NCBI GenBank assembly: GCA_951406725.2
Contig: OX597816.1
Coordinates: forward strand, 81,282,001-81,346,000
From: Octopus vulgaris
Taxonomy: Eukaryota
DNA length: 64,000 bases
Direction: 5' to 3'
Position numbers and translations under genes: made by a program. The notes below the pieces were generated by a model. The model saw only the letters and a list, made by a program, of their open reading frames with translations. It was not told where the DNA came from and searched no databases. Shown one piece after another: positions 13,662-44,202 of the stretch (positions are counted from its first letter, which is position 1; the number at the start of each line of letters is the position of its first letter).

Positions 13662-14056
13662 GGCGCAGGAGTGGCTGTGTGGTAAGTAGCTTGCTAACCT
13701 ACCACATAGTTCCGGGTTCAGTCCCACTGCGTGGCATCTTGGGCAAGTGTCTTCTGCTATAGCCCCGGGCCGACCAAAGCCTTGTGAGTGGATTTGGTAG
13801 ACGGAAACTGAAAGAAGCCTGTCGTATATATGTATATATATATACATATGTGTGTGTGTTTGTGTGTCTGTGTTTGTCTCACTAGCATTGCTTGACAACC
13901 GATGCTGGTGTGTTTACGTCCCCGTCACTTAGCGGTTCGGCAAAAGAGACCGATAGAATAAGTACTGGGCTTACAAAGAATAAGTCGATTTACTCGACTA
14001 AAGGTGGTGCTCCAGCATGGCCGCAGTCAAATGACTGAAACAAGTAAAAGAGTAAA
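13662..14056 (+). mobile_element. tRNA-derived SINE family A, full length, with internal (TA)/(TG) tract
   Basis: A-box-like TGGCTGTGTGGTAAG, B-box-like GGTTCAGTCCC and tail CAGCATGGCCGCAGTCAAATGACTGAAACAAGTAAAAGA. Several near-identical copies occur in the window. Confidence 0.9.
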
Positions 14057-14084
14057 TACATACATACAAACAAACAAACAAACA

Positions 14085-15075
14085 AACAAAATCCTGACAA
14101 TAACTGGGAACTTCCACAGAAACAGTGATATTGACAGGCTCTACCTAAGAAGAAATGAAGGTGGTACAGGCCTCTGTGATACCTGCCGTATGGTATCACT
14201 CAGGCAGTACCTGCTAAACAACAACAGCAAAAATAAATATATTAATGCAGTCCTGAAAAGTGAAGTGAGCAACACTGTACGAGATGGCAAGTGCACTCCT
14301 CAAGAAACACTCTCTTCCTAATGATCTCCTATGCAGCCCCAAAACAGATGGACTCTCTTACCTCAGAGAAGACCTAGATACAAAGCACTCAGCATACAGG
14401 ATATGTTGCCCTGAAGCTTGAAGAAGACAGTAGAATTGACACAAAGCGCAGCCTCTCTTAGACACAAGACCACTACATCACATTGCACTTTGAAGGCTAT
14501 GCGTTTGCAATCCAGGAACAGGAGATTCCCACAAAATACCTGGTGAACAAGAGAGACAGTGACGCTCTTGTAATCCTAAGGTGCAACCGCTAGTGTAGGC
14601 TATGTCATGTTTCTGTGGAAGACATTACGCATATGATTAGCAGCTGTCCTAAAATGTCGTCACGGTACTACCTCCCTATGCGGCACGATGTTGTTGCTAA
14701 AATAATTTACAATGCCATCCGCAAAAAGGACTGTCCTGACATCCATAAACACCAACTCAGGGAATACTGGTGGAATATTCCCATCAAAACTTGTCAAATG
14801 TAAGCGTAACAGGCCGAATATTGCTGTTTGGGACAGAGGGTCAAAGGTGTGTACCATCATAGAGGTTAGCTGCGCTGCAGATATAAATATCTCTTAGAAA
14901 ATAAAAGAGGATATCTACGGACAACTGCTTCGAAACCCCCAGCTTCTATATCCAGAGTATGAATTCATATTCATACCAATAATAACTGGAGCACTAGGTT
15001 TCGTTAGTAAATGCTTAAAGGAGAATCTGGATAAACTGGGATTTTCAAAAAGAAAAACTGACCGGCTGATTGCTT
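14085..15075 (+). mobile_element. R4/Dong-type RLE non-LTR retrotransposon, 3' part (pseudogenised)
   Basis: KILTITGNFHRNSDIDRLYLRRNEGGTGL, FAIQEQEIPTKY, CCHC knuckle CRLCHVSVEDITHMISSC followed by RHDVVAKIIY, and RLE core NRPNIAVWD...CTIIEVSC, IPIITGALG. Confidence 0.88.
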
Positions 15076-20529: not shown

Positions 20530-20615
<86 letters not shown>

Positions 20616-20616
<1 letters not shown>

Positions 20617-20812
20617 AAGTTAATCCAAACATGAAAACACAACAACGCGAGGACGTAGAACAAATATAGTATTATTGGACGCTCAGGAAGGAAGGGAAGA
20701 AGGAGGGTTTTACGTTTCGAGCGGAGCTCTTCGTCAGAAACATAGGAAAAGGAAAGATCCAGAGAAGGAAAGACGGAGGAAAAAAATCGCCAACGGTACA
20801 CACGCGGTCACA
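20616..20812 (-). mobile_element. Short hammerhead-bearing retroelement fragment (Penelope pLTR or retrozyme-like)
   Basis: Lies between (TG)n and (TA)n, is homologous to 21853-22153 with the same left end, and contains the hammerhead at 20707-20741. Confidence 0.75.
20707..20741 (-). ncRNA. Minimal Type I hammerhead ribozyme motif
   Basis: Minus strand: GUUU CUGACGA A GAGC-ucc-GCUC GAAA CG UA AAAC. 4-bp stem I, 4-bp stem II, palindromic ACGU stem III, GUA site. Confidence 0.8.
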
Positions 20813-21554: not shown

Positions 21555-21852
21555 ATATATATATATATATATATATGTGTGTATGTACGTATGTATGTAT
21601 GTATGTATGTATGTATGTGTGTATGTATGTATATGTTTGTGTGTCTGTTTGTCCCTCGAACATCGCCTGACAACCAATGTTGGTGTGTTTATGTCCCCGT
21701 AACCTAGTGGTTCGGCAAAAGAGACCGATAGAATAAGTAGTAGGCTTACAAAGAATAAGTCCTGGGGTCGATTTGTTCGACTAAAAGTGTTGCTCCAGCA
21801 TGGCCGCAGTCAAACGACTAAAACAAATATAAGAATATATATATATATATAT

Positions 21853-22153
21853 AAGGTTAATCCAAACGGGAAAACAGAAAAAACAACAACACGTGGAACA
21901 ATTAAAGTATTATTATTAGGCGCTCAGGAAAAAGGGAAGAAGGAGGGTATGACGTTTCGAGCGGAGCTCTTCGTCGGAAACATAAGAGAAAGAAGAAAGA
22001 AAGATCCCGAGGTGGGCGAACGGAGGGAAAAAAACGCGACTGGTTTTTACGAAGTAAACATGCTGAAAGGCCGGAAGTTTTGGATAACAGGGGCTGGTTT
22101 TTAAAGACAAAAGAGCGGAAAAAAGGAAGGTTGGTAACAACTCGATGAATGGG
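21853..22153 (-). mobile_element. Second copy of the hammerhead-bearing short element, TA-flanked
   Basis: Homologous to 20616-20812. Confidence 0.75.
21947..21981 (-). ncRNA. Minimal hammerhead motif, U4C variant
   Basis: GUUU CCGACGA A GAGC-ucc-GCUC GAAA CG UC AUAC. One mismatch in stem I. Confidence 0.65.
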
Positions 22154-30134: not shown

Positions 30135-30292
30135 CTAGACGCGTATCAGCATATCAAAAGCAAGCTCATTATGGAACTAAAGAATAAATTTGCTTTGCTT
30201 GAGGCGATTCCAGAAGATATTGACATAGAAGGGAAATGGAAAAACTTCGATAAAGCATTCAACCAGACAGCCAAAGTACTCAGTGGATTGTG
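30135..30292 (+). mobile_element. RTE LINE internal fragment (post-endonuclease)
   Basis: MELKNKFALLEAIPEDIDIEGKWKNFDKAFNQTAKVL (cf. EL.NRF..L....DIE..W..F..A). Confidence 0.55.
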
Positions 30293-30295
30293 ATA

Positions 30296-30640
30296 TGTTG
30301 ATACGCGTCTGAGAGGAATCATGCGTAGAGCCGACCAGGTCCACTAGTGTCCTCCATCGCTGGCAGTTCCATGCTGGCCCCTCTGCATCTTCCAAGGTGA
30401 CGTTGAGCTCTGGAGGTCTTCCCCAATCACGTCCAGCCATTTGGACGTCATGAGGCCCCTTCCACCCCGCAGCTACTGCATCGAATAAGAGTAAAGCTCT
30501 GGTAGGATGATCCAGTGGGAAACGGAGGACATGTCCATACCAGCGCATGCGACGGGTAGATGTGAGGTGAGAGGCTGCGGACTGATGCGTGCGCGCACGC
30601 AGTTCTTGTTGGAAACGTGATGGTACCATCTGTTGTTCTC
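30296..30640 (-). mobile_element. RTE LINE 3' fragment
   Basis: RRMRWYGHVLRFPLDHPTRALL...LNVTLEDAEGPAWNCQRWRTLV. Confidence 0.8.
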
Positions 30641-30699
30641 GATGTATATACATAACGCTTTCTATAGAGACAGACAGACAAATGGACAGACGAATACAT

Positions 30700-30700
30700 G

Positions 30701-30738
<38 letters not shown>

Positions 30739-30743
30739 TAGAC

Positions 30744-30798
<55 letters not shown>

Positions 30799-30807
30799 CA
30801 GATAGAT
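30700..30807. repeat. (GACA)n/(GATA)n microsatellite
   Basis: Direct reading. Confidence 0.95.
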
Positions 30808-31174
30808 TTGTAAATAATTCCGTAGATAATTTGTTAAGAGATTTAAATTACGTGTAAATTTTAGTAGTGTTACCGTAGATGGAAGAATGAAAGTGTATTT
30901 ACGACACAGCCAAAGTATTAAAATATAAATGGATTTTAAATATGAACGTGTGACTATTAATTAGATAGCACAGAAGACAAGATAATGCTTCTGTTTTGCT
31001 ATAGGGGGATTTATTTTACCTATCTGGATACTTTAGCTGTGTGCCAAACTTAACGTATATACACCATTGAAAGACATGATGCTGCGTTTTTTTTGTCTGA
31101 GAGAAAATCTCTTCATAGGCATGTTGTGTGAGAGACACAATATACATCGGAGCGAGAACATCATCCACGAGAAA

Positions 31175-36574: not shown

Positions 36575-37090
36575 AGAAGACGAAGTGGTCACGGCTGGAA
36601 TGCATTTGGTCATTGGCCTACTCAATCAAGTTGATCTGGTGCAAAGCAATAAAAGGAGTACAACTGAACGGATGAAGAAGTCATTATATGGTTAATTGAC
36701 GGATCTATTCCATATCAATCACATATACTAGATCCTGATTGACTTGCTAAAAATAGCAATCACGCCCTACTGTCTCAAACAGAAAGGACACATTAGATAA
36801 CGAGGTCTTTAAAACCCTTATAAAGACGGGGTGCTGTCGGTTTGTCATAGGTCTCTCAGTTGTGGCCGGCCTAGGGCTAAACAAGTGCATTATATAGACA
36901 CGCCAAAAAGGGATTTTTACGTCGTCGCTCTGCCTGCTAAATTCTCCTCAGCTCCAGTTTATTTTCTTCAAAAACGAAAGACATTTAGGATAATCTAGTC
37001 CAAAATATATTGTCAGAAAATAAGGGACATTGCTTACAGATTCCATCATAGGTCTATTTGCTCAGTTGTTGATCTAGAACTAAACAACAA
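36575..37090 (-). mobile_element. Three decayed copies of an old short interspersed repeat (also at about 430-620, 1545-1730, 41635-41845 on + and 48150-48290 on -)
   Basis: Recurring motifs approximating GGTCACGGCTGGAATG..TTTG.TCATAGGTCT..TC..TCAG.G.TGACCTGGGGCTAAACAAC and GCTATTTCTAGC. Confidence 0.5.
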
Positions 37091-37171
37091 CAACTACAGT
37101 AATACCAGGTGTCAATCTATTGACAAGTCATCTCTTCAGCTGGTGTTGAATAAAGATACTTGTTTAGCTAC

Positions 37172-37226
<55 letters not shown>

Positions 37227-37233
<7 letters not shown>

Positions 37234-37680
37234 GTAAAATTAATTACAGACATGGACAAGAACATGAAACACCAAAGAGACGACACAAGAACCACAGGAC
37301 GGGACATTCGAAGCCCTCAGTCATCAGTCAAGAACCAGATCATCTTAGCAATTTCGGCTGATTAATCTTGAGATTGCTCCGATTTGGGCAGCCCGCCAAG
37401 GGAAATCTAAGCCAAGCGCATTAGATCCCCTGGAAGAAAGCTTCGAATGTATACAACACGAGGACGGAAAACGAACGAAGTACACGAACAAAAATACAGA
37501 ATACGTGACACCAATAAGAATACAAAAACGTAAAAACAATAACGGTAAAAATAAAAAACAAAACAAAACCAGGACGTAGGACAAGGGTCTTTCGACAGGA
37601 CGAGTTGAGTTTAGGGCTGGCTTATGAAGTTGTGCCTAATGGCCGCAGGGAGACGAACAAATACGTGTTGCTTCGGCGTG
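37227..37680. mobile_element. Unclassified insert between (TA)n and (TG)n, probably Penelope-like
   Basis: Sharp microsatellite boundaries and strand-asymmetric composition like the hammerhead-bearing inserts. Only a non-canonical CUGAUGA...GAAU is present. Confidence 0.4.
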
Positions 37681-37708
37681 TGTGTGTGTGTGTGTTTGTG
37701 GTAAGTAA

Positions 37709-37906
37709 GCGTAGGAGTGGCTGTGTGGGTATGTAGGCGTAGGAGTGGCTGTGTGGTAAATAGCTTGCTTACAAACCACATGGTTCCGGGTTCAGTCCCA
37801 CTGCGTGGCACCTTGGGCAAGTGTCTTCAACTATAGCCTCGGGCCGACCAAAGCCTTGTGAGTGGAGTTGGTAGACGGAAACTGAAAGAAGCCCGTCGTA
37901 TATATG

Positions 37907-37939
<33 letters not shown>

Positions 37940-38140
37940 ATATGTTTGTGTGTCTGTATTTGTCCCACCCCCCGCTTGACAACCGATGCTAGTGAGTTTA
38001 TGCCCCTGTAACTTAGCGGTTCGGCATAAGAGACCGATAGAATAAATACTAGGCTTACAAAGAATAAGTCCTGGGGTCGATTTGCTCGACTAAATGTGGT
38101 GCTCCAGCATGGCCGCAGTCAAATGACTGAAACAAGTAAA
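37709..38140 (+). mobile_element. SINE family A with duplicated 5' 20 nt
   Basis: GCGTAGGAGTGGCTGTGTGG occurs at 37709 and 37737. The rest matches family A. Confidence 0.9.
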
Positions 38141-38166
38141 CATATACCAGTAAAGAATAGCCCGTA

Positions 38167-38737
38167 TGGAGGTAAGACAATTTTTTTCAAGTTTGTTGCA
38201 CACACGCATTTTTGCTAGTACATACGCAGTGAAGCCATACATTAGCGTCGTATTTATTACGTTCGCTATTTTCCAGTAAATATCGGTACTTCGTTGTACC
38301 ATTTATTTGTTTTTATGTATAATTTTCCCTCACAGGCTATTCTTTACTGGAAAGCAATACTTTCGTATTGCATTACTATTTTTATTGAAACTTCTTCACT
38401 GTTCTCGTTCTGTCAACGTCTTGGCGTTCAGTCGAGTGTATTGGCATGGATGTGGCAACATTTGAAATGTTGTCGAGGTATATGTTGGCTGATGAAGATA
38501 AATCAAGTATATGTGTGCAGACATATCTTGAAAAATCTGAAACCGGTACCACATTATCCCTTTCTAGGTATTTCATCTTTCAGATGTTCTCCCTGGAGGT
38601 AAGACAATTTTTTTTCAAGTTTGTTGCACACACGCATTTTTGCTAGTACATACGCAGTGAAGCTATACATTAGCGTCGTATTTATTACGTTCGCTATTTT
38701 CCAGTAAATATCGGTACTTCGTTGTACCATTTATTTG
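38167..38737 (+). mobile_element. Partial tandem (427-bp period) hammerhead-containing element, retrozyme or pLTR-like
   Basis: Near-identical direct repeats of about 143 bp at 38167-38309 and 38594-38737, with a hammerhead between them. It ends at (TA)n. Confidence 0.8.
38482..38554 (+). ncRNA. Canonical-core Type I hammerhead motif
   Basis: ATGT(T)GG CTGATGA AGAT..TCAAGTATATGT-gtgcag-ACATATCTTGA..ATCT GAAA CCGG TA CCACAT. Palindrome ACCGGT, GUA site after 38548. Confidence 0.85.
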
Positions 38738-38738
38738 C

Positions 38739-38791
<53 letters not shown>

Positions 38792-38806
38792 GGGAAGGCC
38801 GGTTTA

Positions 38807-38869
38807 TGGGATTGCCTTAGGTTTCCTGTCCATAAAGGGTTTAGCTTTATGGCGTATCGTCAGATCCCA
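38807..38869 (-). ncRNA. Hammerhead motif with U16.1-to-C lesion
   Basis: UGGGAU CUGACGA ..CCAUAAAG-7nt-CUUUAUGG.. GAAA CCUAAGG CA AUCCCA. 6-bp stem I, adjacent to (TA)n. Confidence 0.6.
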
Positions 38870-39019
38870 AAACCTGTTGGATTTGGGATCTATGCGAGTA
38901 GTTTGTATATAAATCGAGTAAGAACGAGTAAAGGAACAAACCAGTGGCTTTATACAACTACTACAAATAATAACATTGTCCGATGTGGGCATAAATCCAA
39001 TAATTTAGAGGGAATAGTT

Positions 39020-39461
39020 TAATCGATATCATAGACTCCAGTACATGGCTGACACTTTATTTGTTTCACCCCAGAATGGAAGAAAGACAAAGTGGACCGC
39101 AGTGGGATTTGAACTCAGAGCGTAAAGAGATGGAAGAAATACTACAAAGCATTATTTTCGACGCTCTAACGATTCCGCCAATTCACCACCTCATATCTAC
39201 CAAAAGTAATAACTGCCTTCGAAAGGTGAGAAAATATTTTTTTACAATGCTTTATATAATATGAAAATGAAACTTTTAGTCCCACAGCCACTAAAGAGAT
39301 GAACAGTCACCGAAGCAGGTAGATTCCCTGCAAGGTAAACAAAATGCAGTATATGTTCCATATATTCTTCATGCAGTATATTCGAGGTCCATTCTTATCA
39401 TTGTATTTAATTCACACAGACATAAAGCCATATCCCTTTCTACTTTTAGGCACAAGGGCTG

Positions 39462-42705: not shown

Positions 42706-42990
42706 TCACATTTTGAACTTCAGAAATGCCATGCATAATTTTAATGTTCTGCTTACAGATCGTATCAGCAATGTGCGTGGTAGCTGGTTGATTTCTTTTT
42801 TTGAAAATCCTTGATTTTCCAGATTGTCACTCAGGTATTTACTCACTACATCAGGTAGCATTTATACTAATGTAAATTTATAATCTGGATATAGAATCTG
42901 AAGGTTTCGAAGCAGTTGTCCATAATTTTTCTCTATCTTTGTGATTTTCGAAGAGATAACCATATTGGCTGACCTCAAAGACATTACATC
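42706..42990 (-). mobile_element. 3' end of the same R4-type LINE family as 14085-15075
   Basis: NYGQLLRNLQILYPDYKF matches YGQLLRNPQLLYPEYEF at about 14917-14966. It ends FLKFKM*. Confidence 0.8.
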
Positions 42991-43687
42991 TATTCCAAAC
43001 ATATGTATGCATGCATGTATGTATGTATGTAGGTAGGTAGGTAGATATGTAGGTAGGTAGGTAGGTAGGTAGGTAGGTAGGTAGGTAGGTAGGTAGGTAG
43101 GTAGGTATGTAGGCAGGCAGGCAGGCATTATATCGGACACGGACATCGCTGATTGGTTAAGAAGTTCAGTTCGCGATTATGATGTGACAAGCTTGATTCC
43201 ATTTTGGGTATCTTTTACCGTAATCTCTGGCCATTTCTTGTTTTATGAATAAAATTGGATCAGCGGAAATAGTATACAATAGTGTCGGATCAATTGTACG
43301 AGTTATTCAAAAGGCCAGCTTTGTCATACATTCTGTCGGGTGTATTCTGCTTGTGGATTATTATAAGACATTTTCAACCGCAGTGCCACATATGTGCCAC
43401 ATATATCTGCAGGTATACCGCGCGTTATTGAGTCGAGCCAGGAAATGCTAGAATATTTAGAAAACTTGAGTGCAAAGTTAATTTATAATTTACTGTTTTC
43501 CTGTTCGGATCTGTTGAGCATGTTTTCGTCAGTGAGTTAATTGCTTATGAATTATTTATTACTAAAACAATTTCGTGTGTCTGTCACGCTGTGAACTTGG
43601 CCATCAAAAAATAACTTGAACTCAATTCACACCTAACGTCATTTTGCAATGAAGCGTGTATGTATATGTGTTTATATGTATGTGTGT

Positions 43688-43719
<32 letters not shown>

Positions 43720-43786
43720 TAAATAAAATGAGACAACAAAGCCAAGGCAGTGTGAAATTTCTAGGATATTTATAAAGAGAAAGGTA

Positions 43787-43834
43787 GTCTTACAGCTGTT
43801 TCAGGGATATGAGGGCTATCCCTTCATCAGATAT
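43787..43834 (-). ncRNA. Hammerhead motif (stem I decayed)
   Basis: CUGAUGA AGGGAUA-gcccuca-UAUCCCU GAAA CAGCUG UA. 7-bp stem II, palindrome ACAGCUGU. Confidence 0.7.
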
Positions 43835-44202
43835 GATATGAGAGAGTTAAATAGAGGGAAATAGTAGAGTTCAATATAAAGAGTTATTTTGGAAAGGGAG
43901 CGATATAGGAAGTATATCACTCATACTATTTTCGAACCGGGAGTCTAACTATGGTCCTTGTGTAGCACTTACATAGCCTTACCTGCCTTGTTGGGTTTTC
44001 TGGATACCAAAACCTCTCATATATATATATTTGTTTTATTTTATTTTATTTTATTTTATCTAGTTTCAGCTCACGAACTGTGGCCATGCTGGGGCACCGC
44101 CATTTGGTGTTGCTACATGATTTTACTTCACGAATGCTTTTTAGCAATTGCCATTTGGTGCATGGGAGAGTTCGATGCATATATATATATATACATATAT
44201 AT

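Follow-up and report, generated by a model that had tools for sequence, protein, structure and literature searches.

The stretch at 38147-38743 of the analyzed window—by which we mean the whole 64,000-nt piece of Octopus vulgaris DNA—is very probably an ORF-less hammerhead unit mobilized by a Penelope-like element (PLE). More specifically, and with a confidence only somewhat better than even, we read it as one insertion of a 427-bp hammerhead repeat, devoid of ORFs and present in many copies, which would have been moved by PLE reverse transcriptase and endonuclease from an uncut linear RNA of longer than unit length. The unit is likely a small parasite of PLEs of the retrozyme kind (an animal non-LTR retrozyme, a non-autonomous PLE derivative).

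A link between retrozymes and PLEs has already been proposed (PMC7229834, PMC5680766) and backed by phylogeny (bioRxiv 10.64898/2026.07.22.740005), the idea of a circular-RNA retrozyme moved by a PLE resting, in the available parts of those three papers, on co-occurrence, a shared ribozyme type and the similarity of pseudo-LTRs. In Octopus vulgaris itself recently active Penelope families have been described, in a paper whose main text does not contain the word "ribozyme" (PMC13282606), and a literature search by title and start of the abstract yielded neither an octopus retrozyme nor a cephalopod hammerhead family, which the supplements of papers may list. The kind of element is known, and to the specialist this example should be useful rather than surprising; what makes it valuable is the insertion marks, through which the proposed retrozyme-PLE mechanism can be put to the test. 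Here an ORF-less unit bears the PLE insertion marks themselves along with indications of selection on the plus-strand RNA fold, and the unit, being small, lends itself to the in vitro PLE assay already in use, with which to distinguish the copying of circles from that of uncut multimers. The parts of the locus and its flanks, in window coordinates, are the following, A denoting the portion of the unit that occurs twice:

37973-38140, plus strand: SINE-like short dispersed repeat in the left flank, outside the element, recurring 5 further times in the window (89-93% identity)
38140-38146, no strand: ACATATA, a TA-like remnant at the left insertion end, putatively the left half of the target (from the sequence)
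38147-38165, minus strand: inverted copy of 38332-38350, head to head with the direct copy in the manner of PLEs (18 of 19 letters matching)
38167-38314, plus strand: first A copy (the 3' part of the unit, 5'-truncated), a pseudo-LTR-like repeat (alignment)
38315-38350, plus strand: 36-nt candidate PLE "tail" between the two 3' ends (from the geometry, with the role suggested by PMC8557442 and PMC11167929)
38315-38743, plus strand: one full unit of 427-429 bp, 36.5% GC, non-coding by appearance, predicted to fold as a long branched rod of which the hammerhead forms one arm
38482-38554, plus strand: type I hammerhead motif (descriptor match) with a predicted cut after the GUA at 38548, a long helix II, a 1-bp helix III and the palindrome 38542-38547
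38594-38743, plus strand: second A copy (alignment), whose end is the putative main start of reverse transcription
38743-38788, no strand: (TA)23 microsatellite, the probable insertion target (PLEs prefer (TA)n or AT-rich DNA; PMC8557442, PMC11167929)

The near-perfect direct repeat with 427-bp spacing and the abutting (TA)n array, both reported in the first-pass annotation, were borne out: the A copies are 98% alike, with 3 differences over about 150 positions—one substitution (38236/38664) and two 1-base indels in or beside T runs—and lie 427 and then 428 positions apart, so that the stretch amounts to about 1.35 units, while the (TA)23 follows directly behind the second copy. A third A copy was not found in the 64-kb window by blastn. 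The event had also been called recent, which those 3 differences support only moderately.

At the 5' junction stands a 19-bp piece, overlooked in the first-pass annotation, that reproduces, inverted, the unit interior at 38332-38350 in 18 of its 19 letters, and in all 19 if 38334 is given the majority letter of the family (43645 of the 44152 depth at that place in one public run, X1, described below). None of 1479 30-mers from the window, taken as a control, reached 19, the best attaining 15; 11 of the 19 letters nevertheless resemble the tail of the left-hand dispersed repeat family. The insertion begins at this piece, about 20 bp to the left of 38167, so that the layout from 5' to 3' is TA remnant, inverted piece, 1.35 direct units and (TA)23. 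On the unit, the 3' ends of the direct copy and the inverted piece are 36 nt apart. Over about 7 nt at 38739-38750 a single letter distinguishes the unit's own continuation from the TA array, and this stretch may have served priming as a microhomology. Farther out, the segments at 37230-37660 and 38789-39060 are single-copy in the window, lie beside TA arrays and contain short inverted repeats, being possibly remnants of mobile elements.

PLE insertions have been described as consisting of a partial tandem, an adjacent inverted 5'-truncated copy and a 30-40-bp tail, with a bias toward TA or microsatellite targets (PMC8557442); and a PLE has been found to cut and extend both strands of its target, using two internal start sites of reverse transcription (PMC11167929). 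By analogy, these known marks are present here: a partial tandem with the hammerhead near its 3' end, an adjacent inverted piece, and TA on both sides, with the end offset of about 36 nt as a candidate tail. No autonomous PLE partner was found.

Contigs of four public runs (X1, X2, X7 and X15, from 4 studies and with 2 organism labels) were aligned to 38110-38742, X7 and X15 being RNA only by our guess and the contigs carrying neither the level nor the strand nor the ends of an RNA. Parts of the stretch occur in 20 of the 24 runs listed (9 studies, 4 organism labels), and in all four aligned runs the unit was covered in 28-29 of 29 bins. X1 furnished 8249 contigs and X2 9470, of which 2022 and 2430, respectively, run over an end, contigs of the left-hand repeat being included in these counts; in both runs most family contigs are 90-99% alike to the unit. 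One X2 contig has a depth of 7937.5, as against 30-69 for 8 long X2 pieces listed, which ratio suggests more than 100 family copies, depth not being a copy count. The exact patterns of the unit were absent from metagenome contigs, viral contigs and prokaryote genomes.

The family contigs listed tile round the unit on to 38742, and many of the diverged ones bridge the passage from A to the remainder of the unit, which we call B. Variants at 38309/38310 are carried by 49-52 X1 and 25-26 X2 contigs, whose ends lie up to 37-41 letters away; record 10 of X15 spans 38167-38371 with 9 differing letters. Because diverged contigs of X1, X2 and X15 thus cross it, the unit-to-unit junction at 38309-38314 is native to the family. 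That slippage or unequal exchange produced a local duplication in the 5' part of a monomeric mobile element—the one-off event that the first-pass annotation had set against its own proposal—would agree with two A copies that are adjacent and 98% alike; but the junction between them is common to many diverged members of the family, and the inverted piece and the TA remnants at both ends would be left unexplained, so that we consider such a duplication very improbable.

The same shared junction makes it unlikely that the locus is composed of two scraps of a long PLE, namely, that 38167-38350 and 38351-38743 are two successive 5'-truncated ends of a long autonomous element and that a 427-bp unit does not exist. 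Such a succession is the normal route by which PLE pseudo-LTRs arise (PMC8557442), and the window holds three further PLE-like end fragments with hammerheads; in addition, two X7 contigs continue behind 38480 into unlike sequence (the agreement there being just 0.73), and in each DNA-type run the fit is partial for 273-342 contigs. Against those points, diverged copies cross 38314 and pass 38350 (records 10 and 11 of X15), 22 X1 contigs bear a variant at 38341 with as many as 32 letters between it and their end, a predicted 11-bp helix spans 38343-38353, none of the 24 loose ends listed of 301 lies at 38350, and the share of contigs running on into unlike sequence is 0 in all four runs. The best piece listed crosses 38350 by 21 letters, the length sought having been 31, and the longest listed on the unit measures 229 nt, with none among those listed spanning two ribozymes. 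We give the two-scrap composition a low probability, if not so low a one as the local duplication.

Other copies exhibit comparable ends. Opposite-strand joints were observed in X15 (38336|38392) and in X1 (38587|38635); loose ends rich in TA occur in X7 behind 38385 and in X15 before 38639, among the 24 listed of 301. The second start of reverse transcription is not fixed at 38350, because a different inverted arm extends to 38371 or beyond and one copy has its end at 38385. The inverted arms that overlap the tail begin, for their part, at 38332 in this locus and at 38336 in record 11 of X15, 4 nt apart, as if in these two cases the second cDNA had been stopped at a fixed obstacle about 20 nt downstream of the putative main start. 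A further observation concerns the variants at 38560 and 38570, which make up 1-12% of the depth in X1 and X2 versus 27-73% in X7 and X15; the subfamily bearing them may be transcribed preferentially, the RNA status of the latter two runs being guessed and each variant standing on one or two contigs.

As a plus-strand RNA the unit is predicted to be strongly self-paired, with a z-score of -5.8 for the linear fold (0 of 100 shuffles as good) and of -6.8 for the circular fold (0 of 40). The variants of the family tend to leave that pairing intact: a predicted plus-strand pair is broken by 5 of 37, whereas random places matched for base and CpG would lead one to expect 12.8 (P about 0.0003), those 37 being the 40 listed of 65 less two whose letter the second A copy already has and one duplicate. 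A stricter count of 36 gave 5 breaks versus 12.4 expected (P 0.0012), and on the linear plus-strand fold 6 variants break a pair versus 12.6 (P 0.004); in the minus-strand fold, used as a control, the corresponding figures were 13 and 16.2 (P 0.14). Because the listed variants spare the plus-strand pairs and not significantly the minus-strand ones, this comparison points to selection on the fold of the plus-strand RNA, which strand bears the ribozyme.

The unit looks non-coding, as had been claimed, because its longest frame has no homologue and is broken by indels in other copies. That frame, of 118 stop-free codons—a length reached by 66 of 2000 shuffles—includes a 95-codon ATG frame from 38315, found no match among 1.84 billion proteins and no Pfam match above the cut-off, and contains 1-base indels in other family copies; nor does the unit contain an RT or GIY-YIG ORF. 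Just behind the ribozyme, at 38575-38604, acceptor-like, ATG and strong donor-like signals occur (donor at 38599), and a variant at 38601 still fits the donor consensus. Introns are frequent in PLE pseudo-LTRs, but none of the 3 joints listed was a GT..AG skip, and no spliced contig was seen. A candidate intron between 38172 and an acceptor at 38334-38335 was rejected, that AG being private to this copy.

The ribozyme had been described as a canonical hammerhead with a GUA site and an extended stem II. The motif itself stands, with CUGAUGA at 38489-38495, GAAA at 38539-38542 and GUA at 38546-38548 (core 38489-38548), helix I formed by 38482-38488 with 38549-38554, and a long helix II of 4 + 5 + 6 bp; the term "canonical", however, was overstated, because Rfam reports no hammerhead at the gathering score in the whole window, the helix II pair adjoining the core is A-U and not G-C, and helix III is a single pair closed by a palindromic loop. 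The hammerhead is hence not fully canonical. Even at E-values up to 10 the 21 Rfam matches in 37000-39000 included no hammerhead, the best falling on the TA repeats. The full type I descriptor matched 1 of 5000 shuffled units, and none of 5000 once helix III had to be palindromic; this latter descriptor matched in 2 of 200 shuffled 64-kb windows. Within 38147-38743 there is one hammerhead only, located between the A copies.

Palindromic hammerheads of the dimer type with a long helix II have been found in PLE pseudo-LTRs (PMC4209133), and the hammerhead of the unit is likewise predicted to cleave only as a dimer. The active monomer fold was calculated at -13.5 kcal/mol versus -21.6 kcal/mol for the best monomer fold, which blocks the core, whereas the double hammerhead, at -47.3 kcal/mol, lies below two monomers (-43.2 kcal/mol), but above a competing two-strand fold (-55.9 kcal/mol). 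With one ribozyme, the locus could not release a monomer or a circle in cis; source arrays with a dimer-type hammerhead may nonetheless yield monomers and circles too. In the family, the cut-site triplet changes from GUA to GUC, which is still cleavable, in 9770 of the 23962 depth of X1, and helix I variants in the contigs hint at a compensating change. The 11 core letters free of variants among the 40 listed of 65 do not reach significance (P 0.37). Certain loose ends reveal a subfamily in which both helix I and the 6-bp hairpin that caps helix II differ from those of the unit.

On the favored reading, an outline of the insertion would be as follows. A tandem source locus would be transcribed, and a PLE protein, acting in trans, would bind the folded RNA and nick the TA tract on both strands. 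One nick would prime at the site equal to 38743 and copy 1.35 units through the uncut ribozyme, while the other would prime about 36 nt downstream (38350) and give rise to the 19-bp inverted piece; repair would then leave both cDNA ends joined head to head. The cDNA sequence crosses the cleavage site seamlessly, which leaves two possible templates, an uncut multimer and a ligated circle.

The first-pass annotation had taken the longer-than-unit copy as the sign of reverse transcription around a circle, but a copy of this length does not by itself point to a circle: in PLE clades without canonical hammerheads partial tandems are formed all the same (PMC8557442), and the RNA copied by a purified PLE was for the most part uncut, mutants of the ribozyme being inserted normally (PMC11167929). 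For those two reasons, and because in vitro cleavage was seen in only 1 of 9 dimers of Xenopus retrozymes (bioRxiv 10.64898/2026.07.22.740005), we favor by analogy the uncut linear multimer, which would explain every feature of the locus too; the locus as such fits either template. The alternative, in which monomers cut by the hammerhead were ligated to 427-nt circles and a PLE reverse transcriptase ran 1.35 times round one of them, is possible, though we regard it as doubtful. Its arguments are that retrozymes of similar build from coral, mussel and axolotl give abundant circles (PMC7229834); that the fold of the unit is closed, highly paired and kept by the variants; that the best monomer fold, in blocking the core, would protect a circle; that the family keeps a cleavable triplet and shows the mentioned hint of compensation in helix I; and that both A copies share a rare letter, a G at 38309/38737 where 98% of the X1 depth has A. 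Such a common G is to be expected from one template or from one source array, and in that respect suits the uncut multimer and the ligated circle equally.

A bolder version, which we think rather unlikely, would have the ribozyme-ligated 427-nt circles as the real templates of PLEs, with both nicked strands priming on one RNA, the one proceeding round the circle and the other stalling about 20 nt short of the first start. If this were true, the insertion junctions would constitute a direct genomic record of retrozyme mobilization by the PLE machinery, which is proposed, though not shown, in the available parts of PMC7229834, PMC5680766 and bioRxiv 10.64898/2026.07.22.740005.

As to its nature, the unit shares several features with animal non-LTR retrozymes (PMC7229834, bioRxiv 10.64898/2026.07.22.740005): it is non-coding, falls within the range of 150-450 bp and has a GC content below 45%; its hammerhead is of type I, helix III being short and palindromic; and it pairs strongly with itself, exists in many copies and has a head-to-tail junction. 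In canonical hammerheads helix II has 4 bp, whereas that of the unit is much longer and starts with A-U; mussel retrozymes, for their part, are without most of the tertiary contacts between loops 1 and 2 of the canonical type I motifs (PMC7229834). The locus differs from the known retrozymes in having one ribozyme, theirs being two or more, and an active retrozyme is recognized by two ribozymes/units (bioRxiv 10.64898/2026.07.22.740005). The candidacy as a retrozyme, as originally put forward, consequently stands with regard to the absence of an ORF, the copy number, the self-pairing and the native junction, but not with regard to the ribozymes, of which 38147-38743 contains a single one; the locus is at most an inserted offspring of a retrozyme source. 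In the available parts of PMC7229834 and bioRxiv 10.64898/2026.07.22.740005 we found no description for retrozymes of an inverted piece with a tail-sized offset, as occurs at this locus.

The pseudo-LTRs of EN+ PLEs with minimal hammerheads (PMC4209133, PMC8557442, PMC11167929) resemble the locus in the hammerhead near the 3' end with its long helix II and dimer-type helix III, and in the partial tandem, the adjacent inverted 5'-truncated piece, the ends 30-40 nt apart and the TA-rich target; EN+ PLEs are unlike it in that the unit has neither an RT nor a GIY-YIG ORF and is 427 bp long rather than kilobases. The non-autonomous Chlamys PLEs, such as MRC1 (PMC8557442), are comparable by description only, being ORF-less and having pseudo-LTRs and head-to-tail insertions; they are, however, green-algal and belong to a clade mostly without canonical hammerheads, and four motifs of the unit were absent from the supplement of that paper.

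In the remainder of the window several further features were recorded. No Pfam match above the cut-off was obtained in the 5 frames scanned of 64 long ones. The ends of the frames at 42862-43176 (minus), 30177-30833 (minus) and 13962-14321 (plus) resemble what we take to be decayed pieces of non-LTR retrotransposon proteins, though these frames gave no Pfam match above the cut-off. At 43720-44012 (minus) a fragment of about 290 bp, situated between TA and CA repeats, contains a second hammerhead-like core (43830-43791) with a 7-bp helix II, a palindromic helix III and a weak helix I; it has the look of a truncated 3' end from a PLE of another family, a relationship with the 427-bp unit having been rejected because the two are no closer than shuffles (score 38 versus a mean of 37). 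Finally, the fragments at 20613-20810 and 21850-22150 (minus), which are 78% identical and lie each between microsatellites, bear minimal hammerhead motifs whose cores are at 20737 and, with one core letter changed, at 21977, and are likely to be solo PLE ends.
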